This document shows, in pieces, positions 18,014 through 35,739 of a DNA stretch of 64,000 nt. The notes beneath the pieces are model-generated. The model made no database searches and was not told the origin of the DNA. It saw nothing but the letters and a program-made list of their open reading frames with translations. This DNA comes from an uncultured bacterium. GTDB taxonomy: Bacteria; Abyssobacteria; SURF-5. Position 1 is the stretch's first letter. Each line of letters opens with the position of its first letter. The stretch spans positions 14,045 through 78,044 of the forward strand of contig CAZSKP010000009.1 of the NCBI GenBank assembly GCA_964607485.1. Reading direction: 5' to 3'. Made by a program: the position numbers and the translations under genes.

Positions 18014-18901
18014 TCAGTTGTCCGAACCGATCATGCGTGCAAAAGCTTTACTCACTCTCGCAGGTCCCGCGTCTCTAACAGTCAAAGGAGGGGTCTGGCG
18101 CTGGTCATAACAGATGCCAACATGGCTGTCAAATGTGCCATTTCCATTCGTGCTTGACTCTAAAACTATCCCTTCTGTGTCTTCACCCGCCAGACCAGCC
18201 CATTCAGCGTTTGTTGCTTCAAGATATTCTTGAATTTCTGGCCAGCTTGAGCACCTCCAACCCTGCCAGAAAATCATTGTTTCTGCAACATTGCGCATCT
18301 CCTTATCTGTCTTAATCATTGCTCTGAAATCTATCTCCTCGCCAGCGAGCAAACTGCTCACGCATCCTGCAAATTCAGGATCCATCGAAGCAACAAATTT
18401 GAGACTGATCTTCTTTCCTTTAGAAACTTCCTCGTAAAATCCTTCCTCAACCAATATTTTCCGATAGCTATTATAAACAATATCATCAAGGCCGGAGATA
18501 TATTCGGAACAGGTTGAAAAGAAATTGTGAATCTCTTGTGCATCCAAATTTCCGTTTGAAGACTGGATCAGAGAACATCTGGACCATATTTTACTTTTGT
18601 TTGGTGGAACACAAATCGTAATGGATGGCCTGTACTCGAGCAGAAAACCATTGGACCTAAATTGGAGACCGCCGAAAACCAATCCAGGCCCTTCCCGCGA
18701 CTCATTCTCTGGTTCTAGACTCTTTTCATTCGTGATACGCGTCAAGCAATTCTTGATCTCTTTATGGAGAGATATCCATTTGCGGCTCATTGCATTCCTT
18801 ACTGCAGTAGCCTTCCCATATTCACTGCTGCAGAATCCACGCGGTTTCACAACCAAGCATGACCTGATCAAAGGGAATCTGTATTGCTTGTCAGCGTACA
18901 A
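18014..18901 (-). CDS. Hypothetical protein; island gene A
   Basis: 295 aa ORF in low-GC DNA, no motif recognised; first in-frame start TTG at 18901, possible later ATG (MSRKWISLH). Confidence 0.4.
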   Translation of the reverse strand: MYADKQYRFPLIRSCLVVKPRGFCSSEYGKATAVRNAMSRKWISLHKEIKNCLTRITNEKSLEPENESREGPGLVFGGLQFRSNGFLLEYRPSITICVPPNKSKIWSRCSLIQSSNGNLDAQEIHNFFSTCSEYISGLDDIVYNSYRKILVEEGFYEEVSKGKKISLKFVASMDPEFAGCVSSLLAGEEIDFRAMIKTDKEMRNVAETMIFWQGWRCSSWPEIQEYLEATNAEWAGLAGEDTEGIVLESSTNGNGTFDSHVGICYDQRQTPPLTVRDAGPARVSKAFARMIGSDN

Positions 18902-20927: not shown

Positions 20928-21659
20928 GACCCCGCGCTCCCGGCTTCGAGCGCGGCCGTCTGCGAGCGGACCAACCGTCGAATGCCATCCTGCGCGAGGT
21001 CGAGCAGCTCGTCGAGGAGCTTTCTCTCGAACGGGTCCTTTTCAGCGGTGGCCTGAATCTCGACAACCCTTCCTGCTTGCGTCATAATCACGTTGAGGTC
21101 CGCCTCCGCCCGCGAGTCTTCCTGATAGCACAGGTCGAGCATCGGAATCAACTATGCCCACGCTGGTGGCGGCCACGACTTCCCTGATGGGCATCGAGTC
21201 GATTCCGTTCGACTCGATGAGCCACGAGAGAGCGTCGTGCAGCGCGACGAACGAGCCGGTGATCGCGGCGGTTCGCGTGCCGCCGTCTGCCTGGAGGACA
21301 TCGCAATCCATCTGAATCGTCCGCGAGCCCAGGGCCGAAAGGTCCACCACGGAGCGCAACGTGCGTCCGATAAGCCTCTGAATCTCGAACGCGCGCCCCG
21401 ATGCGCCCCGGCCGATGCGGGTCTCGTTCGAGCGGGGGAGCATCGCATACTCGGCGGTTATCCATCCCTTGCCCGAACCCTCCAGAAAAGGCGGGACCCC
21501 TTCCCCGACGGAGGCGTTGCACAGGACCCGAGTATCGCCGATTTCAATCAGCACGGACCCTTCGGCGTACTTTGTGAATCCTCTCCGGATGACGACGGGC
21601 CGCATCTCGTTCCACCGTCGCCCGTCCGGCCTGAGAATGTGCGTGCGATCATCCGCCAC
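20924..21659 (-). pseudogene. rph: Ribonuclease PH, interrupted by a frameshift near 21143-21160
   Basis: ORF 21042-21659 carries the RNase PH N-terminal two-thirds ([48 protein letters not shown]) and runs into Arg/Gly junk after SVGIVD; ORF 20924-21151 in another frame carries the conserved C-terminus ([20 protein letters not shown]...VEIQATAE). Confidence 0.75.
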
Positions 21660-23079
21660 TGGGAACTTCCTCGGGTTGCGGCTGCTGCTCAGTCTCGGGA
21701 GCTGTCGTATCGGGGAGAGCCTCGACAGGCGCTGTGTCCGTCGACGTGCCGGAGGAAACCTCCTTCGGCTCCTCCTTCGCGGTGGTCTCGATCTGTTTTT
21801 TCGCGACGTTTATGTTCTGTTCGATTGTCTTGAAGATGTCGTACCCCTGAAGCAGCTCTACCGCCCGTTCGAGCTGAATGTCCGTTGCCTCAGGCTTTTC
21901 CTGGCCGGCGCCGACCGTGCCGGGTATGGTCATGCCGCTGAGGAGGTGGGCAAGCTGTTCCTTGCTCATCTTCACGACAATATCCGGAGTGATGCCGACC
22001 CCGTTTATGGAATGGCCGTTCGGGGTGAGATACTTCGCCGTGGTCAGACGAAGGGCCGAACCGTCGGACATTGGGATTATGCTCTGAACCGAGCCTTTCC
22101 CGAATGTCTTCTCGCCCAGGATGACTGCCCGATGCCAGTCTCTGAGCGCGCCCGCCACAATTTCCGACGCGCTGGCGCTGCCCCCGTTCACCAGCACGAC
22201 GATGGGCGTACTTGGATCGACCGTCGCGTCGCGCTTCGCCTTGAATCTCAGACTCTGGTCGGGGTGGCGAGACTCGGTGTAAACGATGAGCTGGCCTTTC
22301 TCGAGAAATTCGTCGGCCACGTCGGCGGCCACGTTGAGCAGTCCGCCGGGATTCGTGCGAAGGTCAAACACGAGCGACCGCATCCCCTTGGCCTTCAGGT
22401 CCTCTATCGCCTCGTGGAGCTCGGTCCCGGTCTGTTCGCTGAACTCGCGAAGGCGGATGCGCCCGATGGAGTCGTCGAGCATATCCCACTTGACGCTCCG
22501 GATCTTAATGTCGTCGCGAACCAGCGTGAACTCCAGCTCTTCCGGAACGTTGCCGTCGTTTTCGTGAAGCCTGAGAACGGAAATGGTGACCTTTGTGCCT
22601 TTCGGACCCCGAAGTTTCTTGACAGCCTCTTCGAGCACCAGTCCCGTTGTGCTCTCCCCGTCGATCTTTATGATTTTGTCGCCCGCCTGCACGCCGGCTT
22701 TGAACGCGGGGGTGTCCTCGATGGGCGAGACGACGGTGAGCACCTTGTTTTCGTCGAGGCTGATGACGATTCCCAGCCCGCCGAAGTGTCCCTCGGTCTC
22801 GACCTTGAGCTCCTTATAGACATCCGGGGGCATGAACTGGCTGTGGGGGTCGAGTCCGTCCAGCATTCCCTTCAGCGCGTCGTATATCAGCGTTTGGGTG
22901 GAGACTTCCTCCACATATTCGCTCTGCACAATGCTGAGGGCGTCGGAGAAAAGCTCGAGGTCGTTGTATGTCGAGCCGGTCTGAGCCGCGACGTAGCCGG
23001 ACAGGCTGTTGCCTATGATGAGGCCCAGCGTGAGAACCGACGCCAGAAAAAGGAAAAACTCACTCCGATTGCGTTGCAT
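21649..23079 (-). CDS. ctpA: Carboxyl-terminal processing protease (S41 family)
   Basis: 476 aa; signal/anchor then PDZ region (GLGIVIS...[13 protein letters not shown]) and S41 core [14 protein letters not shown]. Confidence 0.85.
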
Positions 23080-25093
23080 GTATATTCCTCCTTTGAAGCC
23101 AAACAGCAGGGTCGACGGGGTCTCCGTGTTCCCTTATTTCAAAATACAGAAACGGGCCCTTCAGCGAACCGGTTTCGCCCACGAGCGCTATGGGTTGGCC
23201 ACCCTTCACATGGTCTCCTTTCCTCACGAGAATCTCGGAGCAGTGCGAATATATGCTGTTATACCCGTCGCCGTGGTCGAGAATCACGAGCTTGCCATAT
23301 CCTCTGAACCAGTCGCAGTAGGCGACAATCGCGTCGTGGATGGCGCGGATTTGCGAGCCCACCGAGCCCGAAATATCGACGCCAAGGTGCCTGGTGAATG
23401 TGCCCGAGTCGGGATTTCGCACCCTGCCGAATGGAACCGTTATTTCGCCCTCGGTCGGCCAGGGGAGCAGCCCCCTCATTTCCCCGAACGGAACCGCGCC
23501 CGTGAGTGCGGGCTGCGCCTCCGCCCGTTGCTTTTCGATAAAATCCTGCAGGTTACGAGCCGAAGCCTCCAGGTCGGTTATCGCGGCCAGATAGATATTC
23601 TTCTGTTCCCTGAGCTTCGTCAATATGACTTCGCGCTGTCTCTTCTTCTCCACAGCCTGCTGAGCGCGCAATTTCGCGGCCTCGGTATAAAGCGTATCCA
23701 ATTCGACGCGCTTACGCAAGGTTTCCTGTTGCTCCAGATAGGTCCTGCGAAGCCCCTCGGCCCGCTCAAAGGTCTCGGCCTCCTTCTCCGCCAACAGTGA
23801 GAGCATTCGTCGACGCCTCGTGATCTCGGATTGGGGAATATCGCAGAGTATGACCTCGACCAGAGACGGTTCCCGTTGATTGCACAGAAGCCTGAGCCAC
23901 TGCTCGAGCTCCTGCCGCGAGCGTACATACAGCGTCTCACACCTGCCGAGTTCGGCCTGCGCCATCCCGATCGCCTCTTTGTTGGCTGCAATATTCGCTT
24001 CGCCCGTCTTGATTTCACGGGCAAGGCTGTCTATTTCCTTGTCTCTCCCCTCCAGGTCGTCTATTATCGCGCGTTCCTGCTGGCCGAGTTTTTCGGCGGC
24101 GGCCATGCTCTGTTGCAGGTCGCGTTCGAGCCGCTTCAGTTCCTGTTGATACTTGACCAGCTCGGACTCCAAGTCCTCATCGGCGCGGACCAGACTCCCG
24201 GCCGGCCACGCGGCGAGCAGGACCGCGAGCGTCACTACGAGCACGTTTCGAAGCGAAAACCAGCTTGCCATGAGCGCCAGAGCCGGGCCGACGGCAAAGG
24301 CCGCCCCCACCAGTCCCAGGGGGAGCCGAAGCGTCTCGCCCATCCTGTTCGAAAGCAGCGCGGCCGTGACTGCCAACGCGCCGACGCCGACGGCCGACCC
24401 GCACATGCCCTGCGCAACACCCTCCACTGCGAAGACGCGGCGAATGAACTTTGTGCTCGCGCCCAACATGCGAAGCGTGCGTATCTCGCTTTTGCGGGCG
24501 GTCGAGGCGAGCCTCGCTATGTTGACCGTGATTATTCCGAACGCCAGGATCCAGAAAATGCTCGTCCCGGCCGCAAATCCGGCCATTTCCCGGCGAAATT
24601 GCAGGTATCGCTCGAGCATCGTTTCCTCGAACCGTACCTCGTCCACCCCCTTGATCGAAGCAACCCGCGAGGCCACCCGCCTGATGACGGAGAGGTCCCG
24701 GTTGCCCTCGACAAGCCTTATCACAATCGAAGGGGGCAACACCTCATCGAGCGGCACCTCGCCCAAGTCGAGCGAATCGCCCGCTTCGGAGAAGAGTTCT
24801 TCCCACGATTGCTGGCCGCTGACCAGTCTCGCGTCGCCCACCTCGTTGATGGAGCGAACGTCGTCGAGCACCTTCTGCGGGCTCTGCGCCTCCGGCCCGC
24901 GGGAAAGAAAGGCGACCAGCTCCACCCTGCTCTCCCATTTCTTGAGCAGAGAATTCACGTTGAGGACGAGGAACGCAAACGCCCCCATCGCAAACACGGC
25001 GACCGCCACGCATCCGGCCATGGCCAGGCTAAGAGTGCGCGCCCGCCGGAAATTCCGAAGCCCTTCCCTAACGGCGAGGTTGTATCCCTCCAT
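23060..25093 (-). CDS. ftsX: FtsX cell-division permease fused in one ORF to an EnvC-like coiled-coil/M23 (LytM) domain
   Basis: 677 aa continuous ORF: FtsX-like N-terminal part with four hydrophobic helices around a periplasmic domain, an extra hydrophobic segment VLVVTLAVLLAAWPAGSLVRA, a long coiled-coil, then M23 motifs HLGVDI and YSHCSEI. Confidence 0.7.
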   Translation of the reverse strand: MEGYNLAVREGLRNFRRARTLSLAMAGCVAVAVFAMGAFAFLVLNVNSLLKKWESRVELVAFLSRGPEAQSPQKVLDDVRSINEVGDARLVSGQQSWEELFSEAGDSLDLGEVPLDEVLPPSIVIRLVEGNRDLSVIRRVASRVASIKGVDEVRFEETMLERYLQFRREMAGFAAGTSIFWILAFGIITVNIARLASTARKSEIRTLRMLGASTKFIRRVFAVEGVAQGMCGSAVGVGALAVTAALLSNRMGETLRLPLGLVGAAFAVGPALALMASWFSLRNVLVVTLAVLLAAWPAGSLVRADEDLESELVKYQQELKRLERDLQQSMAAAEKLGQQERAIIDDLEGRDKEIDSLAREIKTGEANIAANKEAIGMAQAELGRCETLYVRSRQELEQWLRLLCNQREPSLVEVILCDIPQSEITRRRRMLSLLAEKEAETFERAEGLRRTYLEQQETLRKRVELDTLYTEAAKLRAQQAVEKKRQREVILTKLREQKNIYLAAITDLEASARNLQDFIEKQRAEAQPALTGAVPFGEMRGLLPWPTEGEITVPFGRVRNPDSGTFTRHLGVDISGSVGSQIRAIHDAIVAYCDWFRGYGKLVILDHGDGYNSIYSHCSEILVRKGDHVKGGQPIALVGETGSLKGPFLYFEIREHGDPVDPAVWLQRRNIHATQSE

Positions 25094-25122
25094 TGAGATC
25101 GTTCGCCGTCCTCTCCCCCGCG

Positions 25123-25794
25123 TCAGGACGCCGGGGTCTTCTCCATCCGACCGAAGGAACGTGTGTCGAGCATGATGGGACGTTTGCCCGACTGCTCCGC
25201 AAATTCGACGTTATGAGTCGCAATCACGATGGTCGACCCGCGCAGGTTCGCGCCCTTGAACAGTTCCGCCGCCTTCTCGGCCGACCGCCAATCGAGCCGC
25301 TCATACGGTTCGTCGGCCAGCACGATTTTGGGCCGGCGCGCCAGCGCGCGGACGATCTTGAGCATCTGCTTTTCATTCTCCGAAACCTGGTCGGGGAACA
25401 GGCCGGTCTTGCCGAGGAGGCCGATTCCCCTGAGATAGAAAACGGTCTCCTTCCTGGCATCGGAGGCCCGCCAGCCCGCGAGTTCGAGCGAAACCGATAT
25501 ATTCTCGGCGAGGGTATGCTGTGGAAGCAGATAGTCGTCCTGAAATATCACTCCGAGTGTGCGCCTGTACTTGGGATAGTCGCGTCGCGGAATTTCGGTG
25601 ATGTCGCGCCCTTCCACGATGACGCGGCCGCCCGAGGGCATCTGCTGAAGCGCCAGCGTGCGCAACAGAGAGGTTTTCCCCGAACCCGCCTGCCCGCAGA
25701 TGAAAACAAAATCCCCCTTTTCGATATGCAGATTGAGGCCGTCGAGCACCTCGTGGGGCCCATGTCGCAGGCACAGGTCCAAGGTAATAATCAC
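25123..25794 (-). CDS. ftsE: Cell-division ABC ATPase FtsE
   Basis: GTG at 25794 overlapping upstream stop (GTGA); Walker A GQAGSGKTSLL, signature-like VSENEKQM, Walker B IVLADEP. Confidence 0.85.
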   Translation of the reverse strand: MIITLDLCLRHGPHEVLDGLNLHIEKGDFVFICGQAGSGKTSLLRTLALQQMPSGGRVIVEGRDITEIPRRDYPKYRRTLGVIFQDDYLLPQHTLAENISVSLELAGWRASDARKETVFYLRGIGLLGKTGLFPDQVSENEKQMLKIVRALARRPKIVLADEPYERLDWRSAEKAAELFKGANLRGSTIVIATHNVEFAEQSGKRPIMLDTRSFGRMEKTPAS

Positions 25795-26750
25795 TTCCCG
25801 GCCGCCTTCCTCGATATGGCCCGACGCGCAGCCTCTGCCACGTTCTCGGCCGTGAGTCCGTAGGCCGCCATCAACTCTTTGGGCTCCCCCGACTGACCAA
25901 ACCTGTCCTCTATGCCGACCCTCACCACCGGAGCCGGAGAGGTCTCGCACACTATCTCCGACACGGCGCTTCCCAGGCCTCCGATGACATTGTGCTCTTC
26001 CGCCGTGACGAGCGCGCCCGTTTCGTTGACGGCCGCGACTATCGCATCCCGGTCGATAGGTTTGATGGTGCTCATGTTGATGACACGAGCGCCTATTCCG
26101 TCCTTCGAGAGCGCCTCGGCGGCGACGAGCGCAATTTGCACCATCGTGCCAATGGCAATAATGGCGACATCGGAGCCATCCCGAAGAATCGACGCTTTGC
26201 CGAGCCTGAAGGGGTAGCTTTCTTCATAGATTATGGGCACTCCCGACCGGCCCAGCCGCAGATATGCGGGGCCGGGTGTCTCCACCACGGCGGCAACCGC
26301 CTTTTCGGTCTCCACCCCGTCGGCGGGAACGATGACTTTCATGTTCGGAATGGCCCGCATGATGGCGATGTCTTCGATTGATTGGTGAGACGACCCGTCG
26401 GGTCCGACGGCGATGCCCGCATGCGAGGCGGCGATCTTGACGTTCAGGTTCGCATAGCAGATGGAGTTTCTTATCTGCTCCCAAGCTCTTCCGGTGGCGA
26501 AGATTACGAATGAACTGGCGAATGCGATCTTGCCCGCTGCGGCGAGGCCCGCGGCCGTGCCCATCATGTCCGCCTCCGCGATGCCCATGTCGAAGAATCG
26601 TTCCGGGAACTTCTTCTTGAACTTTATCGTCTTTGTGGACTTGGCAAGGTCGGCGTCGAGCACAACGACGTCGGGGTTCTGTTCGCCCAACCGCACGAGC
26701 GCGTTTCCGTAAGCCTCGCGCGTCGCAATCTTATCACCGACCTTCAGCAT
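25791..26750 (-). CDS. Transketolase, C-terminal (pyrimidine-binding) subunit
   Basis: 319 aa; matches split-transketolase C-terminal half (GIAEADMMGTAAGLA..., ETPGPAYLRLGR). Confidence 0.85.
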   Translation of the reverse strand: MLKVGDKIATREAYGNALVRLGEQNPDVVVLDADLAKSTKTIKFKKKFPERFFDMGIAEADMMGTAAGLAAAGKIAFASSFVIFATGRAWEQIRNSICYANLNVKIAASHAGIAVGPDGSSHQSIEDIAIMRAIPNMKVIVPADGVETEKAVAAVVETPGPAYLRLGRSGVPIIYEESYPFRLGKASILRDGSDVAIIAIGTMVQIALVAAEALSKDGIGARVINMSTIKPIDRDAIVAAVNETGALVTAEEHNVIGGLGSAVSEIVCETSPAPVVRVGIEDRFGQSGEPKELMAAYGLTAENVAEAARRAISRKAAGK

Positions 26751-26769: not shown

Positions 26770-27594
26770 TCACTCCATTTCAGCCAATGCGCGAACACAC
26801 TCCTCCTCCGTGGGTGCGACGCCGTGATAATCGACCATGTTTTCCATGAACGAGACGCCCTTTCCCTTGACCGTGCGTGCGACTATCATTGTCGGCCGGG
26901 CTTTGGCATCCCGGGCCGTTTCGAAGGCTTGAAGTATCTCCCCCATATCATGTCCGTCTATTTCGACGACGTTCCAGCCGAAACTCTCCCACTTTGCCGA
27001 TATCGAGCCCAGAGACTTGATCTCGTCGATGTGCCCGTCGATCTGAAGGCCGTTGTTGTCCACGACCGCACAGAGATTGTCCAGTCCGTGATGGGCTGCC
27101 GTCATCGCCGCCTCCCATATCTGGCCCTCCTGTATCTCTCCGTCGCCCAGAAGGACGTACACGCGATAGTCGCGTCTGTCGAGCCTGGCGGCGAGCGCCA
27201 TGCCGTTGGCGATCGAGAGCCCCTGCCCTAACGAGCCGCTCGACATATCGACGCCGGGGGTCTTCCGCATGTCCGGATGTCCCTGCAGCGGGCTGTTCAA
27301 CTTCCGAAGGCCGTCCAGCCAGTCGACGGGAAAATATCCGGCCTTCGCCAGTACCGCGTACCATGTTGGCGCGCAGTGTCCCTTCGACATCAGGAAGCGG
27401 TCGCGTTCGGGCCAATCGGGACGGCGCGGGTCGTGCCGCATCACATGGAAATACAGGGCGACAACTATGTCGGCGCACGACAGGCTTCCGCCCGGGTGAC
27501 CGGAGGCGGCCTTGGCGAGCATCGTGACGACATCTCGTCTTACGGCCTTCGCATGCGCCTCGAGAGCGGCAATCGTGTTCCGGTCAAAAGACAT
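26770..27594 (-). CDS. Transketolase, N-terminal (TPP-binding) subunit
   Basis: 274 aa; GHPGGSLSCADIV, GDGEIQEGQIWEA TPP-binding motifs. Confidence 0.85.
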   Translation of the reverse strand: MSFDRNTIAALEAHAKAVRRDVVTMLAKAASGHPGGSLSCADIVVALYFHVMRHDPRRPDWPERDRFLMSKGHCAPTWYAVLAKAGYFPVDWLDGLRKLNSPLQGHPDMRKTPGVDMSSGSLGQGLSIANGMALAARLDRRDYRVYVLLGDGEIQEGQIWEAAMTAAHHGLDNLCAVVDNNGLQIDGHIDEIKSLGSISAKWESFGWNVVEIDGHDMGEILQAFETARDAKARPTMIVARTVKGKGVSFMENMVDYHGVAPTEEECVRALAEME

Positions 27595-27701
27595 GTCGCG
27601 GGCCCCTGTTTATCCAATATATGACATCGGGAGAACAGCATGTTAGTTTATCAGATTGGCGGGTAAATGTAAACCGAAATTCACTTGTTCGACGGCGGGA
27701 A

Positions 27702-29072
27702 TCAAACCTTGATATCGTACTTTTTTATGCGGTATTGCAGCGTTTTGTACGTCATCCCCACGAGCTTCGACGCTTTCAGAATGTGACCGCCTGTTCTTGC
27801 GAGCGCCTCGCAGATGAGCTTCTTTTCTACCTCCTCTATCGAGAGTCCCTCTTCGGGCAGCCGCACTCCCGGAAGCTGCTCGGCGGCCGCCTGAGGAGCG
27901 AGCAGACTCCGGGGCAGGTCGTCCACGGCTATTTTGTCCTTATCCGTCAGAACCAGCAGCCGTTCGAGCGTGTTCTCAAGCTCCCGCACATTGCCCGGCC
28001 AATGGTACGCCACAAACTTGTCGATGACCGCAGAATCGAGGACGGGATATCTTCGCTGAAACTCTTGCGAGAGCTTCCTCTTAAAAAAGTCGATCAGCGG
28101 GGGCACGTCTTCCTTGCGCTCGCGCAGGGGCGGGATATCGACGACTATCACGTTAAGCCGGAAAAACAGGTCTTCCCGGAAGTTTCCTTTTGCGACCTCG
28201 CGCTCCAGGTTCTTGTTCGTGGCGGCGATCACCCGGACATCCACGGAGATCAACTCGGTCCCGCCGACGCGCTCGATCTTCATTTCCTGCAGCACCCGGA
28301 GCAGCTTCGCCTGCAACTCCATCGACATGTCGCCGATCTCGTCCAGGAAGATGGTGCCTCCGTCGGCGAGCTCGAATTTGCCCTTTTTTGTCTGTATTGC
28401 GCCCGTGAAGGCCCCCTTCTCGTGGCCGAACAGCTCGCTTTCTATGAGATTCTCGGGCACGGCGGCGCAGTTTACCGCAACGAACGGGTTCTTCTTGCGG
28501 GGGCCGTTGAAATGAATGCTGCGTGCCACCAATTCCTTGCCCGTCCCGCTTTCGCCCTGTATCAGGACGGTGCTGTTGACCGGAATAGACCTCTCGATGA
28601 GCCTGAAGATTTTTTGCATCTTCTCGCTTGTCCCGACAATGTTGCCAAGATTGAAGCGGGTTTCCACCAACTCGCGCAGTTCCAAATTCTCCTGCCGGAG
28701 CTGTTTGTGCTCGAGAGCCCTCTGAACCGAGACAAGGAGCACCTCTTTGTCGAATGGCTTTGTGATGTAATCGTGCGCGCCCTGCCGCATCGCCTCGACC
28801 GCGCTTTCTATCGAGCCGTATGCGGTCATGACTATTACCTCGGTTTCGGGAGAAACCTGCTTGGCCCCCCTCAGCACGTCGATGCCGTTGCCGTCTTCCA
28901 TTTTGAGGTCGGTGATGATGAGGTCGAGCCTGTCCTTCTCGATCTGCTCGACGGCCTCGATCGTGCCGGAGGCCTGCGTGACGTCGTACTTTGCCCGACT
29001 GAGAACGTCGGAGATGATCTGACGCTGAGCGTCCTCGTCATCCACGACGAGTATCTTCGCCAGCGCGCTCAC
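27702..29072 (-). CDS. Sigma-54-dependent response regulator (NtrC family)
   Basis: REC domain (ILVVDDE...DLIITDLKMEDG), AAA+ activator core (GESGTGKELVARSIH, GAFTGA), C-terminal HTH; GTG start overlaps kinase stop (GTGA). Confidence 0.9.
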   Translation of the reverse strand: MSALAKILVVDDEDAQRQIISDVLSRAKYDVTQASGTIEAVEQIEKDRLDLIITDLKMEDGNGIDVLRGAKQVSPETEVIVMTAYGSIESAVEAMRQGAHDYITKPFDKEVLLVSVQRALEHKQLRQENLELRELVETRFNLGNIVGTSEKMQKIFRLIERSIPVNSTVLIQGESGTGKELVARSIHFNGPRKKNPFVAVNCAAVPENLIESELFGHEKGAFTGAIQTKKGKFELADGGTIFLDEIGDMSMELQAKLLRVLQEMKIERVGGTELISVDVRVIAATNKNLEREVAKGNFREDLFFRLNVIVVDIPPLRERKEDVPPLIDFFKRKLSQEFQRRYPVLDSAVIDKFVAYHWPGNVRELENTLERLLVLTDKDKIAVDDLPRSLLAPQAAAEQLPGVRLPEEGLSIEEVEKKLICEALARTGGHILKASKLVGMTYKTLQYRIKKYDIKV

Positions 29073-30478
29073 GGTGCTTTCTCCGGAATGGTGACGGTGA
29101 CGGTGGTGCCCTGTCCTTGCCGGCTTTCGACTTTTATTTCTCCTTCGTGCTTCTCGATTATCGTCTTTGTGAGCGAGAGTCCCAGGCCGGTCCCTGAAGA
29201 CTTCGTGGAGAAATACGGGTCGAAAATCTTGTCGAGCGCTTCGGCGGGGATTCCCTTGCCCTTGTCCGCAATCGTCAACTTGATCTGCCCATCCGATTCG
29301 GCCATGCTCACATCGATGGTTCCGGTCTCGCCGGAGGCCTCCATTGCGTTTATGAGTATGTTCAGTATGGCTCCTTTCAAGAGCTGGGGATCAACCAAGA
29401 AGTCTCTCGGCGCGGCGGGAATGTTCGTCCGCAGGCTCACGCCCCTTCTTTGCGCGTCCTTTTCGACCAGGTGCGCCGTTTCCTTCAAGAGCTGGTCGAC
29501 CCTGCAGGGACGCAGTGAGAGTTCGCGCTCCTTGGCCAGCGTGAGGAAATCCCTCACGATGTCGTCGAGCCGGTTTACCTCCTTGAGGATGGTATCGGCA
29601 TATCTGTTGAACGACGCCTCATCGAGGTCGTGCTGGGAGAAGATATCCTTCAGATGTGAGATGGTGAGCTTGATCCCGTTGAGCGGATTCCCGATTTCGT
29701 GTGCGATACCGGCCGTCAGATTGCCCAGTGCAGACAACCGCTGTGTCTGGGCGAGCTTCTGCTCCATCTTCGCCTTTGTTCTCAACGCCTCGACCATTTC
29801 ATTGAACTTCATCTCGAGAGTCAAGACCTCGCTGGCGTTGGGCTTAATATCGATCTCATGAAGGTTGCCCTCGCTTATTTCTTTGCAGGTCTCGGCCATT
29901 GCGCGCAACGGGTGCAGAAGCTTGAAAATGAAGTAGCACAGAGCCCCGATGGTGCCAAGAAACAGGATCAGGAGCGCGACGAGGACTTTGCTCCGAAGCG
30001 CCTTCACCAGATGGGTCTGGGGCGCGACGGCAAGCGCGATGCTCACGTAGCCGACCGGCTCCGAGTCAACCATGATGGGAAAGGTTTGAAAGTATGCGGT
30101 TATCTTTCCGCCACCGGCGGGCCGTGCCTCTATAATCTTGGTATCGGGATTGCCGAATTCCAGAAGCGGCGTCTCGTCGTGCTGGATGCTTGAGACGACG
30201 TTTTTTTCGGAATCGCGGACGATTATCGCATCGACGCCGCTGGGCGTCTCCAGGTCGGAGAGACTCTTTTTGAGAACCTCTCGGCGCGGCTCCGCCACTT
30301 CCAGATTCTCGAGGTGAACTTGAAAGTGACGCACTACCTGTGAGCTCTTCTCTTCCATCTCTGAGAGGATGCTCTGCTGGTAGCGGAAAAGGACGCCGAC
30401 TACACTTCCGACGAGGCAGAACGTGAGTACGATGCAACACAGGATGATCTTGAATACCAGAGATTTATACCACTTCAT
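29069..30478 (-). CDS. Sensor histidine kinase
   Basis: Start MKWYKSLVFK at internal ATG 30478; two TM helices, H-box GIAHEIGNPLN, ATPase motifs DKGKGIP and GTGLGLSL. Confidence 0.85.
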   Translation of the reverse strand: MKWYKSLVFKIILCCIVLTFCLVGSVVGVLFRYQQSILSEMEEKSSQVVRHFQVHLENLEVAEPRREVLKKSLSDLETPSGVDAIIVRDSEKNVVSSIQHDETPLLEFGNPDTKIIEARPAGGGKITAYFQTFPIMVDSEPVGYVSIALAVAPQTHLVKALRSKVLVALLILFLGTIGALCYFIFKLLHPLRAMAETCKEISEGNLHEIDIKPNASEVLTLEMKFNEMVEALRTKAKMEQKLAQTQRLSALGNLTAGIAHEIGNPLNGIKLTISHLKDIFSQHDLDEASFNRYADTILKEVNRLDDIVRDFLTLAKERELSLRPCRVDQLLKETAHLVEKDAQRRGVSLRTNIPAAPRDFLVDPQLLKGAILNILINAMEASGETGTIDVSMAESDGQIKLTIADKGKGIPAEALDKIFDPYFSTKSSGTGLGLSLTKTIIEKHEGEIKVESRQGQGTTVTVTIPEKAP

Positions 30479-30799
30479 CTGAGTTCTTTTCGGGCGGGGA
30501 CACTCCACCTCTTAGTATACCCCCTGCGGGTCATTTCTGTCAATTCACCCGCAACCCCGAGATGCAAGACCCGGCGGGTCCATGACATAGGGGTATGCCG
30601 ATGTTTCTCACTCTCTCAATTACACACACGCCGCCGGTAAAGTCGGGCTCGGCGGGAAAAAGACGAGGTTTTGTAAGGTCACGCCCCACCGACCGCGATG
30701 GCCGGTCGAGCGGATAGAAATGCGCCGCACATCTGCAGGCCGCGGCCCGCCCGGGCGGCTGAATCCACCCGCATTCCATGGAGTTGTGGTTGACGGAGA

Positions 30800-31231: not shown

Positions 31232-32785
31232 TCAATCCTCAAGTGGCAACTTGAGAAGGAAAGAGGCGCCTTCTCCAGGCTCTGAGTAGAACTCGATGGA
31301 GCCGCCGTGGGCGCCGATGATATCGCGCGCTATCGGAAGGCCCAAGCCGGTGCCCGCCGACTTGGTGCTGAAGAACGGCTCGAACAATTTCTCGGCGTCA
31401 ACGCGCCGGATGCCCGGGCCGGTATCCGAGATGACTATCTCCGCCCAATCGTCCGAAGCGGCCGTGACCGTCTTTATCCTGCCGCCATCCGGCATGGCCT
31501 CTGCGGAATTCTTATACAGGTTCAAAATCGCTTCCTTTATCCGCTCTGTGTCGAAATATATGTTGGGCAGCCTGTCCGAAAAAACGTTCACAAACGCAAT
31601 TTTTCGGGATTCCATCTCCTTGCGCATGAAATCCTGCAGCTCTCTCAGCGTCCGGTGCAGACACTGTCGGCGAAACTGCATCTTCGGGATGCGGGTGTAG
31701 TCGAGGTATTCTCCCGTGATGCGCTCGAGCCGCTCGACCTCCTTCATTACCGACTTAATGAGTTCCCCCACCTCGCTGCTGATTCCGCTCTCGGCAATCT
31801 GCTCCAGCTCGCATTCCAGCATCTCGATATTGAGCCGGATCGATGCGAGCGGGTTCTTCACCTCGTGGGCGATCCCAGCCGTCATCCGCCCGACAACAGC
31901 CAATTTCTCGGCGTGCAGCTCGTTGGCCTGAAGCCGCCTGAGCTCGGTCGTGTCCCTTATGACGGCCGACTTGCCGGTGGGCTTGCCCGTCTCGTCGCGC
32001 ATAAGCGTCCATGTCACGTCGAGATACAGCTTTCGGCCCGTCTTGTCAAGGGCGGGCATTTCACAACTTCTAAGCGACCCGCTCTCGCCTATGCGCTCGC
32101 GGATGTTCTTCAACACCTTCCGGTGGGTACGCTGATCCGGCACAATCAAGGACAAACCCCGGCCGATCGCCTCATGCTCGTCGTATCCGAAGATGGCCTG
32201 GGCCCCGCGGTTCCAGCTTCGGATACGCCCGCGATTGTCAAAACCTATGATCGCATCGGCGGAATTGGTCGCGAGGTTGGCAAGATAATTGGCCTCGTGC
32301 CTCAGCTTCCGCTCCAGGTTCTTCTCCCTGGTGACATCCCGCAGAACGCCGACTACTCCCGCAACCCGGCCCTGGCGGTTCTTCAAGAGCTTCGCCGTGA
32401 GCAGACACTGCAGTTTCCTTCCATCTTTCGCTTTCACCGTCACTTCGCGGTCGTCCACGTGCTCCGATGTCGTAAGTTCGTTCAGGATCCCCTCAATATC
32501 GCCTCTCAGGATAAATTCGGCCGCAGGATGACCAACGGTATCCTCGTGGCAATAGCCGAGCAGTTTTTCCATGGTGGCGCTGTGGCTGGTGATGACTCCG
32601 CGGGCATCGGTCAAAAGAACCGCAATATCGGGAAGCTCTTCCACAAGACGGTCGAGAACCTCGCGTTCCGCCAAGGCAGGGGCGGGTGATTCGGCGTGGC
32701 GGGAACGGCCGGAGAGGGAGCCCAATCCTTTCGTGACGTTCCTCCGGCCCCCCGAGTCATTGCTGTTGCGAGGCAAGTCCGCCAT
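31232..32785 (-). CDS. PAS-domain sensor histidine kinase
   Basis: PAS-like regions, H-box GIAHEVKNPLASI, ATPase DTGPGI and GTGLGLPIA; start at ATG 32785 tentative (ORF track start 32938). Confidence 0.8.
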   Translation of the reverse strand: MADLPRNSNDSGGRRNVTKGLGSLSGRSRHAESPAPALAEREVLDRLVEELPDIAVLLTDARGVITSHSATMEKLLGYCHEDTVGHPAAEFILRGDIEGILNELTTSEHVDDREVTVKAKDGRKLQCLLTAKLLKNRQGRVAGVVGVLRDVTREKNLERKLRHEANYLANLATNSADAIIGFDNRGRIRSWNRGAQAIFGYDEHEAIGRGLSLIVPDQRTHRKVLKNIRERIGESGSLRSCEMPALDKTGRKLYLDVTWTLMRDETGKPTGKSAVIRDTTELRRLQANELHAEKLAVVGRMTAGIAHEVKNPLASIRLNIEMLECELEQIAESGISSEVGELIKSVMKEVERLERITGEYLDYTRIPKMQFRRQCLHRTLRELQDFMRKEMESRKIAFVNVFSDRLPNIYFDTERIKEAILNLYKNSAEAMPDGGRIKTVTAASDDWAEIVISDTGPGIRRVDAEKLFEPFFSTKSAGTGLGLPIARDIIGAHGGSIEFYSEPGEGASFLLKLPLED

Positions 32786-33055
32786 GCGCTGTACTCCGGG
32801 GAACGTGGGGAAAAAGTTGGCCGCCTCGAAAAATAGGAAAAGTGCATAATTATTATACCACCAAATCGTTTGCTGTGAAGTAGATATTTTGAAGAAATCT
32901 CTTTTTTTTCTTGCGAAACGCATCGGGCCTTTCCCCAAAGGTTAACATCTGAACCCAAAAGATAATTGGCGCGATAGAGAGTCTTGAAAGGTGGTTCCTG
33001 AATGGAAACTGAACGGCAGCCGAGGCGACGAGCGGCGATAAGTCGAGCGGCGGGT

Positions 33056-33741: not shown

Positions 33742-35739
33742 TCAATCTCCGTACAAGTCCCTGATCGGGCCGAGCAGGCCAAGAGCCTCAAGCCGCTCCC
33801 TCTTGGGAACGCCCGTTTCGTAGTCCCAGCCGAGCTTGTCGTAGTATCGCGACGCCATCTTGTCGAGGTCGAGCGTGATATTCGCCAGAGGCCCCTTGCT
33901 CAGAGGAGGATAGCCGCCGGCCCTGTTCCTTATCTGCGTGTCGGCGGGCTTTATGCCCTCGCGGACGTTGAAGCAATGTCTGAGGGTGAGTATCCTCTCT
34001 CCGATTCTGAGGGCTTCGTGCGCGTCGATGCTCCAGCCGGTCACCGCGTTTATCATCTCGAACAGCGGGTATTCGCCCACGAGCAGCCCGAACATGCAGA
34101 CGCCGGCGCTGTTGGCGACCTGGACGAACGCGCTGTTGATGGTCTGGAACTCGCCCGCCTTGTCATAGTTGTACTTCGACGATTTCAGCGATACCTGCTT
34201 GACGGGTTTGACTTGCTTGAACTTCTTGTGAAGCTCCATCAGCATGACGTACGTGTCGGAGGAAATGGTGTGCCGGCCGGGGGTCGGCTCCACCTCGTAT
34301 GCGGTGCCGAAGGTGGGGTCGAACCGCGGATCGTGCATCGGCAGCTCCTGGCCGCCCGCATGGACGGCGAACTTCTCGGAGCCCTTCCCTATCTTTTCCG
34401 CCGCACGCTTGACGCCGTCGGCCAGAACGTCGCCGAAGCCCGACCGCGCCGCCAGTTTCTCGGTCATCTTGACGATGGCGTCGGCGTTGCCCCAGGTCAG
34501 CTTCAGGCCGTCCGTGTCCTCGTCGGTTAATAGTCCGTTCTCGTAACATTCGATGGCAAAAGCGATCGTCGCGCCGGCCGAGATGGTGTCCAGCCCGGCT
34601 CGGTTGCATATCTCGTTGGCCGCGATAATCGATTCGAGGTCGTCGTTCAGGCACATCGTCCCGAACGCAGCAAGGGTTTCATACTCGGGCTTGTGGCTTT
34701 CCTCAAGGGCATACTTGCCCTCCTTCACCTTGACGATGCCGCCGCAGCCGAGCGGACAGAACGCGCAGTAGTACTTCTTCTCCTGATACTTTATGAGATT
34801 CTCGTCGCTGATCTTGTACGATTTGGCGCTGACGGGAAAATCGTGGTGACCGCTTCCGCCCCAGTTTTTCACGGGTGAGTCGCCGCTTTCTGCCGAGTAG
34901 GCCGTCATGCCGCCCGTGCCGTAGCGCATGATGAGTTCCTTGTACGTCGCCGGCGGCGTGGCGAAGAGGAACGGGAAATAGCTGCGCACGAGCTTTCCCA
35001 TGAGGTTGATGTTGTCAACCGATGCCTTGTCTTTGAACGGCGGCTTCTTTCGGAATTTCTCCAGGTAACTCTTGCGTATCTTCGAGAACGCATCCGGGTC
35101 GGCCAGTTCGGTCTTCTTGTCGCCGAAAGCCGCAATGGCCTTGAGCCGCTTCGAGCCCATGACCGCGCCCAGGCCCGAGCGTCCTGCCGCCCTGCCCCTG
35201 TCGGTTATCACTCCCGATATAAGCGAGAGCTTCTCGCCCGCGGGACCGATGCAGGCGATCTGGTACTTCTTGTTGCCCAATTTCTCGCGGATAAGGACCT
35301 CGGTCTCGACGCAATCTTTTCCCCAGACGAACGACGCGTCCACAAGCTCGGCCTTGCCCTCGTTGATGACGAGCATCACGGGCTTTTCGGAAATGCCCTT
35401 CACAAAGACGGCGTCGTAGCCCGTGCGCTTGAGCATCGGCGAGAAATAGCCGCCCGAGTTGGAGTCACCCCATGTGCCCGTGAGCGGCGATTTGCCGACG
35501 ACCATGTACCTGCCCGTGAACGGAGCTCCCGTGCCCGTCAAAAGGCCGGTCGTGAAGCCGATGACCGCGTCGGGGCCGAGCGGGTCGGTCTTGGCGGGCT
35601 GGCGGTCGTACACGATTTTCGCGCCCAGCCCGTAGCCGCAGAGAAAGTCGCGATAGGTGAGTTCGTCTATTTCCTCATCCCATATCTTGCCCGTGCTCAG
35701 GTCGGCCCACAGCACCTTTCCCATATATCCGGAAGGCAT
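33742..35739 (-). CDS. Aldehyde:ferredoxin oxidoreductase (tungsten-containing AOR family)
   Basis: 665 aa; AOR N-terminal domain and C-terminal cofactor-binding region with CAFCPLGCGG; AAAGGAG RBS before ATG 35739. Confidence 0.9.
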   Translation of the reverse strand: MPSGYMGKVLWADLSTGKIWDEEIDELTYRDFLCGYGLGAKIVYDRQPAKTDPLGPDAVIGFTTGLLTGTGAPFTGRYMVVGKSPLTGTWGDSNSGGYFSPMLKRTGYDAVFVKGISEKPVMLVINEGKAELVDASFVWGKDCVETEVLIREKLGNKKYQIACIGPAGEKLSLISGVITDRGRAAGRSGLGAVMGSKRLKAIAAFGDKKTELADPDAFSKIRKSYLEKFRKKPPFKDKASVDNINLMGKLVRSYFPFLFATPPATYKELIMRYGTGGMTAYSAESGDSPVKNWGGSGHHDFPVSAKSYKISDENLIKYQEKKYYCAFCPLGCGGIVKVKEGKYALEESHKPEYETLAAFGTMCLNDDLESIIAANEICNRAGLDTISAGATIAFAIECYENGLLTDEDTDGLKLTWGNADAIVKMTEKLAARSGFGDVLADGVKRAAEKIGKGSEKFAVHAGGQELPMHDPRFDPTFGTAYEVEPTPGRHTISSDTYVMLMELHKKFKQVKPVKQVSLKSSKYNYDKAGEFQTINSAFVQVANSAGVCMFGLLVGEYPLFEMINAVTGWSIDAHEALRIGERILTLRHCFNVREGIKPADTQIRNRAGGYPPLSKGPLANITLDLDKMASRYYDKLGWDYETGVPKRERLEALGLLGPIRDLYGD

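Follow-up and report, generated by a model that had tools for sequence, protein, structure and literature searches.

What becomes of two proteins that form a complex at the division site when a genome encodes them as one continuous chain? This question is raised by a locus in 64,000 nucleotides of DNA from an uncultured bacterium of the GTDB lineage Abyssobacteria, SURF-5 (assembly GCA_964607485.1, contig CAZSKP010000009.1, positions 14,045 to 78,044 of the forward strand; the whole of this stretch is referred to below as the window). Beside ftsE, it carries a single open reading frame (ORF) that encodes both FtsX and an EnvC-like activator, components of FtsEX-EnvC, a well-studied mechanotransmitting ATP-binding cassette (ABC) system that governs cell-wall cleavage at division. 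We found that this ORF is a genuine and selectively maintained fusion of adjacent ftsX and envC genes, within an operon of the order ftsE - ftsX::envC - S41 protease. The ORF and its FtsX part are as follows.

23060 to 25093, minus strand: fused ftsX::envC ORF, 677 residues with an ATG start, assigned by Pfam and NCBIfam and by full-length homologs with the same three Pfam domains
24245 to 25093, minus strand: FtsX part, residues 1-283, assigned by Pfam, NCBIfam, hydropathy, AlphaFold2 (AF2) and Foldseek

The ORF listing contained no stop and no frame break between 23060 and 25093, and inspection of the DNA around the junction (24050-24350) showed in-frame read-through with zero stops. All three Pfam matches of the protein exceeded their gathering cut-offs: FtsX_ECD (residues 57-153, E 6.7e-8, 33.5 bits with a cut-off of 23.5), FtsX (residues 178-284, E 2.4e-10, 40.9 bits with a cut-off of 25.5) and Peptidase_M23 (PF01551, residues 568-662, E 4.1e-29). 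The best NCBIfam family for the FtsX half was TIGR00439, FtsX_Gneg (residues 8-282 on a model of 292 positions, E 1e-38), and that for the C-terminal half was NF008644, EnvC (residues 536-668, E 4e-29), of which the LytM part alone aligns. Their scores, 133.1 and 101.9 bits, lie below the equivalog cut-offs of 255 and 270; since the sequence comes from a divergent phylum, we took the FtsX_Gneg match to support homology but not curated equivalog status. The FtsX part has a cytoplasmic N-terminus, a first transmembrane helix (TM1, ~26-47), a periplasmic domain with an X-lobe that is conserved in the fusion homologs (~48-169) and helices TM2-TM4 (~170-279), and it ends in the conserved motif LASWFSxR282. 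AF2 modelled this part confidently, and Foldseek matched it to Pseudomonas aeruginosa FtsX (8i6o_A) and to FtsEX in a nanodisc (8ymc_C) with TM(target) values of 0.63-0.71. An FtsX chain typically stops soon after TM4, with a cytoplasmic C-terminus; here hydropathy revealed an extra segment, VLVVTLAVLLAAW (residues 284-296), after TM1 and the three further helices, and this fifth hydrophobic segment is followed by 373 residues. The first-pass annotation of this DNA had described a typical FtsX N-terminal part (TM1, periplasmic domain, three helices) running in one reading frame, beside ftsE, into an EnvC-like partner with a long coiled coil and a C-terminal M23/LytM domain. Each of these elements was borne out by the ORF, Pfam, NCBIfam, hydropathy and AF2, the last of which placed the coiled-coil helices at residues 308-404 and 421-524.

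The same architecture is found well beyond this contig. A search of 5.8 billion proteins identified about 30 full-length 90%-clusters, 653-687 residues long and 51-69% identical, with the same three Pfam domains. These clusters stem from NCBI, JGI, ENA and Logan assemblies, with source names that include Candidatus Hydrogenedentota and Candidatus Abyssobacteria SURF_17 (in the NCBI taxonomy, Abyssobacteria is a class within Hydrogenedentota), and the same protein was recovered in independent assemblies. The fusion is also present in eight species of the GTDB representatives (L001-L009), whose loci share the order transketolase-C, ftsE, fusion, S41 protease, RNase PH. The junction sequence varies from relative to relative and the frame is always kept. 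The missed stop or frameshift for which the first reading of the locus had allowed is thus absent both from the contig DNA and from the relatives, and the contig is not a lone instance, since the fusion occurs in these clusters and species and also in other phyla.

Several database entries resembled close relatives with FtsX alone. These entries sit on contigs of 1-3 kb, and we rejected them as unfused relatives: P0039 is a frameshifted copy (frame -1 and then frame -2 on the window DNA), P0217 and P0218 come from 1-2 kb contigs and diverge in sequence past the junction, and P0041, P0036 and P0038 are cut off at contig ends.

More distant fusions were sought by an exhaustive profile search of 1.84 billion cluster representatives, and the fused proteins found have the same sequence layout as the window protein. 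They include a second large clade of about 19 clusters (692-743 residues), labelled Nitrospirota by NCBI, in which an ftsE-fusion-S41 core lies behind rpsP-rimM-trmD-rplS-rnhB in two independent assemblies. Further matches that are fused end to end (676-715 residues; P0040, P0042-47, P0067, P0072 and P0084) had much lower scores, and partial or longer ones were also present. Two loci from Nitrospirota/Thermodesulfovibrionia (L010 and L011) matched residues 28-670 in one stretch and were rejected as distant fusions: the ORF listing shows two adjacent genes, ftsX (294 residues, ending in AVGKIRY and a stop) and, after a 24-nt gap, envC (386 residues, with a classical signal peptide). We therefore used them as unfused comparators. 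They share the ftsE-ftsX-envC gene order, their FtsX ends at the equivalent of LASWFSLR, and the h- and c-regions of their EnvC signal peptide resemble the window junction; unlike the window ORF, they have a stop, the 24-nt spacer, an ATG and a basic n-region (MISSKIKH...). Judged from sequence, these two loci show the ancestral layout.

Three lines of comparison indicate that the stop codon separating ftsX from an adjacent envC has been lost several times independently. The unfused FtsX proteins of L010 and L011 scored 132 and 103 bits against the fused Nitrospirota proteins and 67 bits against the window protein, and their EnvC proteins scored 189 and 173 bits against the fused Nitrospirota proteins and 145 bits against the window protein. 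A neighbour-joining tree of the EnvC parts scattered the fused proteins over at least 10 groups, with nearest neighbours that were mostly unfused; this tree, which lacks support values and spans very deep distances, was used only qualitatively, alongside the pairwise scores and junction differences. The junctions themselves are of different kinds: the window clade has no linker, whereas the Nitrospirota clade has a long basic linker (RFRAKxxxKxRxRK). Taken together, the tree scatter, pairwise scores and junction kinds suggest independent fusion origins, apparently in 10 or more lineages besides that of the window, the large Nitrospirota clade among them.

We then considered what the junction does to the chain. 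Two features are needed for this.

24182 to 24256, minus strand: junction, residues 280-304, read as an internal signal peptide from alignment, core length, conservation and predicted local distance difference test (pLDDT) values
24184-24182 / 24181-24179, minus strand: predicted signal peptidase I cut between A304 and D305

Signal peptidase I substrates have a positive n-region, an h-region of 7-15 residues, a helix breaker and small residues at -3 and -1, with no Pro at +1. The junction was assessed by rule-based checks rather than by a trained predictor, and has the corresponding Sec features: R282 as the n-region, V284-W296 as an h-region of 13 residues, and P297-A304 as the c-region with V302 at -3 and A304 at -1, followed by D305 at +1. 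With numbering checked on the DNA and the cut marked by a slash here and below, R282-N and the hydrophobic segment V284-W296 are followed by P297-A-G-S-L-V302-R-A304/D305-E-D-L308. No lipobox Cys is present at the junction. By inspection, each of the 30 close homologs combines an Ala at -1 with a small or aliphatic -3 residue directly before the coiled coil, giving cleavage-site-like sequences such as AFA/Q, GLA/Q, VRA/D, AYA/E and ARA/E, and most have a Pro 6-8 residues upstream of the putative cut. The Nitrospirota clade independently keeps x-A/KED(L), with Ala in 14 of 19 sequences.

The length of the hydrophobic core also resembles that of a signal peptide. Its median in 61 fused proteins was 12 residues, while in the same proteins TM1 and TM3, the two helices with the in-to-out orientation of the junction segment, had medians of 17 and 19. 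By this measure the core could not be told apart from the N-terminal signal peptides of unfused EnvC homologs (median 11 in 116 proteins; p=0.11 in a Mann-Whitney test). The junction is moreover the least conserved segment (0.28-0.49, compared with 0.60-0.72 for TM1-4; 0.32-0.35 in the Nitrospirota clade) and the one modelled with the lowest confidence, with pLDDT below 50 in two independent AF2 models, and it is not even helical in the Nitrospirota model. The hydrophobic junction therefore looks like a derivative of the EnvC signal peptide and not like a structural helix. It had first been described as a retained signal anchor that would return the chain to the periplasm; the signal-peptide origin and the return to the periplasm agree with these data, but retention is doubtful in view of the cleavable features.

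The part of the protein beyond the junction was modelled by AF2 from a 30-sequence alignment (mean pLDDT 73.5). The predicted template modelling score of 0.35-0.40 for this and the Nitrospirota model makes relative domain placement unreliable. Two features in this part bear on how it would meet FtsX.

23522 to 24181, minus strand: EnvC-like coiled coil, residues 305-524, assigned by AF2, by the architecture of Escherichia coli EnvC and by Foldseek (8tzl_E, 6tpi_A)
23774 to 23923, minus strand: hairpin tip and flanks, residues 391-440, the predicted FtsX-docking site by conservation and by the E. coli binding sites, which flank the tip

The model contains helix I (308-404), a six-residue linker helix (411-416), helix II with the restraining-arm region (421-524) and then a beta-rich LytM domain, with a coiled-coil hairpin about 145 Å long. 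This layout fits the published description of E. coli EnvC, in which long helices I and II are joined by a linker holding a six-residue helix; the autoinhibited kink was not resolved, since AF2 models the restraining arm as continuous with helix II. The best Foldseek matches of the coiled coil in the PDB were EnvC of Vibrio cholerae (8tzl_E) and E. coli (6tpi_A), and a phmmer search of the PDB with the C-terminal half returned P. aeruginosa and V. cholerae EnvC chains as best matches, the latter over residues 13-365 of the 374-residue query. In two distant fused proteins, P0063 (781 residues) and P0200 (743 residues), extra inserts set the coiled coil apart from the signal-peptide-like segment.

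In the solved complexes, two FtsE, two FtsX and one EnvC assemble with the EnvC coiled-coil hairpin inserted between the two FtsX periplasmic domains. The FtsX-binding sites of E. coli EnvC (residues 114-127 and 142-160) flank the tip, about 80 helical residues from the mature N-terminus; the mature protein starts at residue 35 and its heptads at residue 40, and activation requires that the free N-terminal heptads pair with the restraining arm beside the LytM domain. Helix I of the window protein is 97 residues long and starts 3 residues past Ala304. The spacer that links the hydrophobic core to this helix has a median length of 12 residues among 62 fused proteins, of which only two have 35 or more. 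A tethered EnvC could not stand tip-down on FtsX, since this spacer is far too short. The hairpin tip (391-440) is the best-conserved part of the coiled coil (0.71-0.79 compared with 0.52-0.61 for the rest), and non-covalent docking therefore seems to be still under selection.

On balance, these junction features and the known docking geometry lead us to favour, with some reserve, a reading in which signal peptidase I cuts the fusion after Ala304 to give a five-helix FtsX and a free EnvC. The fusion event deleted the ftsX stop, the spacer between the genes, and both the start codon and the basic n-region of the EnvC signal peptide, leaving the EnvC h-region and small-x-small c-region directly after FtsX TM4, with the conserved FtsX Arg282 in the role of the positive n-region. 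TM4 and the signal-peptide segment would insert as a helical hairpin, and the EnvC part would be translocated to the periplasm. Cleavage at V-R-A/D-E would then leave FtsX residues 1-304 with a fifth, poorly conserved and unconstrained C-terminal helix, and free a soluble EnvC-like LytM factor of residues 305-677. By homology with E. coli, P. aeruginosa and V. cholerae, the released EnvC would dock non-covalently by its tip (391-440) between the periplasmic domains of FtsE2X2, and would pass ATP-driven FtsEX movements on to amidase activation during cell separation. The fusion would thus serve co-synthesis and co-localisation as a membrane polyprotein, not as a lasting covalent tether, and side-by-side co-insertion with fixed co-expression is a plausible benefit. 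The first-pass annotation had placed the partner in covalent linkage to FtsX. This stands for the single ORF, but separate mature proteins are more likely because the junction keeps the features of a cleavable signal peptide and because the docking geometry and the 2:1 ratio of FtsX to EnvC fit poorly with a tether of about 3 residues.

Several points weigh against cleavage at Ala304. A strict -3/-1 rule was satisfied by 84% of junctions, but also by 59% of segments after TM1 and 31% after TM3, and a loose version did not discriminate (0.95 at the junction, 0.87 for TM1 and 0.72 for TM3). Because such motifs have a high background in these Ala-rich proteins, the -3/-1 motif alone is weak evidence, and we accordingly gave more weight to core length, conservation and geometry. 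The 13-residue core with its uncharged flanks (19 uncharged residues between R282 and R303) could span the membrane uncleaved, and the turn of 2-3 residues between TM4 and the h-region might hinder access of signal peptidase. The distance of about 130 Å between tip and junction is an estimate from helix length (87 residues x 1.5 Å), not a distance measured in a model. Should cleavage give back two proteins, it is not obvious what the fusion gains under selection, and EnvC would be made 1:1 with FtsX, whereas the known complex contains them at 1:2.

The strongest competitor, which we nevertheless consider rather unlikely, is a permanent tether in which the fifth TM helix is uncleaved and EnvC stays on FtsX. 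Each FtsE2X2 complex would then have two built-in activators (2:2:2), and the coiled coil would leave the membrane N-terminus-first, opposite to the solved complexes, so that regulation would need another geometry, for example with the LytM domain near the membrane or with the tip docking in trans on a neighbouring complex. Conservation of the continuous chain in many lineages speaks for such a tether, as recurrent fusion suggests a benefit of linkage; so does the length of the uncharged stretch, which is enough for a bilayer, and the high background frequency of the -3/-1 motif in these fused proteins. Against these stand the signal-peptide-short core, well below TM1 and TM3, a junction that is least conserved and not modelled as a packed helix, and the retention of Ala at -1 in two independent clades. 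Also against a tether are the spacer of about 3-12 residues, with the docking tip some 130 Å away; the freedom that the N-terminal heptads need to pair with the restraining arm; the single EnvC taken up per FtsX dimer in the known complex; and a hairpin tip that is still strongly conserved. If the chain were uncleaved after all, the hairpin-insertion, 2:1, free-N-terminus mechanism would not be the sole way in which FtsEX drives a LytM factor, the generality of the current FtsEX-EnvC mechanism would be challenged, and the fact that fusion arose repeatedly and independently would suggest that tethering brings a real functional benefit.

A separate question, which applies equally to a cleaved and to a tethered protein, is whether the C-terminal domain is an activator or an enzyme.

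23090 to 23458, minus strand: degenerate LytM/M23 domain, residues 546-668, assigned by PF01551, alignments to EnvC LytM domains (4bh5, 8c0j, 8i6o_E), Foldseek and invariant columns

Foldseek matched this domain to 8c0j_B and 4bh5_A (TM(target) 0.80). H569 and D573 of the HxxxD motif (HLGVDI, as the first-pass annotation had noted) and H617 are kept, with little or no variation in the clade. The HxH motif is replaced by F648-L-Y650 in 'PFLYFEIR', of which L649, Y650, F651 and E652 are invariant, and 'PxLYFEIR' is the same degenerate motif as in the solved EnvCs of E. coli, P. aeruginosa and V. cholerae; bona fide EnvC reads 'PSLYFEIR'. Since HxH is lost and replaced by the motif of the solved EnvCs, the LytM domain is probably a non-catalytic activator, less degenerate than that of E. 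coli EnvC. The domain had already been called non-catalytic, but on the wrong motif: 'SHC' retains its His (H617), and the degenerate element is HxH. We consider it improbable that the domain is a working peptidoglycan endopeptidase under FtsEX control, like RipC, CwlO and PcsB. Three of the five canonical M23 catalytic and zinc residues (H569, D573 and H617) would fit such an enzyme, as would the intact HxH of some distant fusions (P0084 and P0115); but the third zinc ligand and the catalytic His of HxH are exchanged for an invariant F/x-L-Y, the 'P-x-LYFEIR' context is shared with the EnvCs of all three model species, and EnvC activators are the best matches in both NCBIfam and the PDB.

Two observations on this domain stand apart. 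The partial active-site retention despite HxH loss distinguishes the window protein from E. coli EnvC, which has lost both HxxxD and the central His. The distant fused proteins P0084 ('AHLHFS') and P0115 ('PHLHFE') have HxH and HxxxD both intact, so that the fusion partner of FtsX may, in some lineages, be an M23 endopeptidase with catalytic competence instead of an activator.

It is very unlikely that translation also begins within the ORF, in frame, at a codon such as Met275 or a GTG near 284 to yield a separate EnvC, with residues 275-304 acting as an ordinary N-terminal signal peptide. In the window, M275-ASWFSLRNVLVV...VRA/DE would make up a complete n-h-c signal peptide, and in-frame ATG or GTG codons are found at residues 262, 275, 284 and 287. 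However, the candidate start positions are not kept among the seven loci compared, and no Shine-Dalgarno-like motif accompanies any of them, although the missing motif is only mildly informative because such motifs are weak at true starts in this lineage too. Dual expression would also leave the absence of an ftsX stop in every relative unexplained. The independent start at Met275 (in MASWFSLRNV) that the first-pass annotation had raised is therefore unsupported, as the residue is Leu in most relatives.

Least probable of all, to the point of being negligible, is that the ORF is a pseudogene or that faulty sequencing or assembly (an overlooked stop or a frameshift) merged two genes in the contig: frameshifted or truncated entries of close relatives (P0039, P0217, P0218 and P0036) show that such errors occur, but those FtsX-only matches are themselves the frameshifted or fragmentary ones, and the in-frame fusion recurs in about 30 clusters with identities as low as 51%, in eight GTDB species and in separate assemblies of this protein, over a junction that differs in each relative.

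The FtsEX-EnvC systems of E. coli, P. aeruginosa and V. cholerae (PDB 6TPI, 8I6O/8I6R/8I6S, 8TZK/8TZL and 8W6I) have the same components as the window system. In common with them, the window FtsX has a Porter/X-lobe periplasmic domain and four TM helices, and the window EnvC has an antiparallel hairpin, a six-residue linker helix, a restraining-arm region and a degenerate LytM domain with 'LYFEIR'. It differs in that ftsX and envC are one ORF, so that FtsX would bear a fifth hydrophobic helix; in that the EnvC signal peptide lacks a Met and basic n-region and lies directly after TM4; and in that synthesis is obligatorily 1:1, unlike the 2:1 ratio of FtsX to EnvC in the solved complexes. PcsB of Streptococcus pneumoniae, CwlO of Bacillus subtilis and RipC of Mycobacterium tuberculosis are likewise secreted partners of coiled-coil and hydrolase type controlled by a type VII ABC-like FtsEX, but they are active CHAP or NlpC/P60 hydrolases from separate genes, whereas the window partner is a degenerate M23 protein fused in frame. 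The predicted FtsX-binding sites of PcsB also flank a hairpin tip, and the Pfam family CC_PcsB matches the Nitrospirota fused proteins.

The Bradyrhizobium japonicum FbcH cytochrome b-c1 precursor is a membrane polyprotein cut at an internal signal peptide. Viral glycoprotein precursors are polyproteins that signal peptidase cuts at internal signal peptides. The likeness to the window protein lies in a polytopic protein followed by a signal-peptide-like segment and an exported domain, with the signal peptide staying behind as an extra C-terminal helix; FtsX-EnvC differs from these polyproteins in its proteins and function, and its cleavage is a prediction.

We found no description of a natural FtsX-EnvC or FtsX-M23 fusion in full-text searches limited to open-access papers and preprints, or in a 2024 review of FtsEX partners. 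The architecture is already visible in databases, since JGI labels some of the proteins 'septal ring factor EnvC/cell division protein FtsX'; other proteins of about 680 residues are inconsistently named 'DD-metalloendopeptidase family protein' or 'FtsX-like permease family protein'. The fusion provides independent genomic ('Rosetta stone') confirmation of the FtsX-EnvC partnership in phyla about which little is known (Hydrogenedentota/Abyssobacteria, Nitrospirota and others), and a ready-made single-chain construct for structural biology. If cleaved as we favour, it is likely a bacterial membrane polyprotein split at an internal signal peptide, which would leave FtsX with an unusual fifth helix. 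Forced 1:1 synthesis of 2:1 partners raises questions of assembly and turnover, for which the co-transcribed S41 protease is an obvious candidate on the turnover side. The two genes that flank the fusion are as follows.

25123 to 25794, minus strand: ftsE, ABC ATPase, with TIGR02673 FtsE as best family, upstream of the fusion in all related loci
21649 to 23079, minus strand: S41 C-terminal processing peptidase, CtpA/CtpB-like with a PDZ domain, assigned by Pfam and NCBIfam and conserved downstream of the fusion in both clades

The ftsE gene is directly upstream of the fusion, with a gap of 29 nt, and matched TIGR02673 with E 1.9e-53 and 181 bits, below the cut-off of 264.85. Its true start is probably the GTG at 25794 (VIITLDL..., about 223 residues), the mechanically listed 275-residue ORF being too long; in the sequence GTGA, this start shares nucleotides with the TGA that ends the upstream gene for the transketolase C-subunit. 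In tblastn, the extra N-terminal stretch of the longer ORF looks 'conserved' only because it overlaps the conserved transketolase gene in another frame. At the other end, the start of the S41 protease gene overlaps the final 20 nt of the fusion ORF (23060-23079; about 17 nt in the relatives L002, L005, L007 and L008), and dual coding, rather than function, may constrain the conserved tail of the fusion, RRNIHATQS[E/K]. Translation of the fusion appears to be coupled to that of ftsE and of the protease. The S41 protease accompanies the fusion in the Abyssobacteria-like and Nitrospirota clades (L081, 6123-7457) but not the unfused envC of L010 and L011; a functional link is possible, in which the protease might, for instance, turn over EnvC or hydrolases. 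A scan of 10 neighbouring genes revealed no amidase gene. Directly upstream of ftsE, transketolase is encoded as two subunit genes (25791-26750 and 26770-27594, minus strand; one N-terminal and binding thiamine pyrophosphate, the other C-terminal), and this split transketolase keeps its place in all related loci.

Elsewhere, a scan of the window (1-64000) with Rfam returned no family at gathering score, and hence no rRNA, riboswitch or other curated RNA. A 295-residue ORF at 18014-18901 (minus strand), among housekeeping genes, has no Pfam match at E<=1e-5. Very long antisense ORFs at 21415-23307 (630 residues), 23831-25096 (421 residues) and 27621-29861 (746 residues), all on the plus strand, are taken to be by-products of a GC content of about 60% and stop-poor antisense frames, not genes. 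The regions of 27702-30508 and 31232-32938 (minus strand) encode a sigma-54-dependent response regulator (receiver, AAA+ and HTH_8 domains), then a HAMP histidine kinase, as well as a second histidine kinase (PAS-PAS) that lies just past the transketolase genes. Further along, at 33742-35739, lies a gene for an aldehyde:ferredoxin oxidoreductase.

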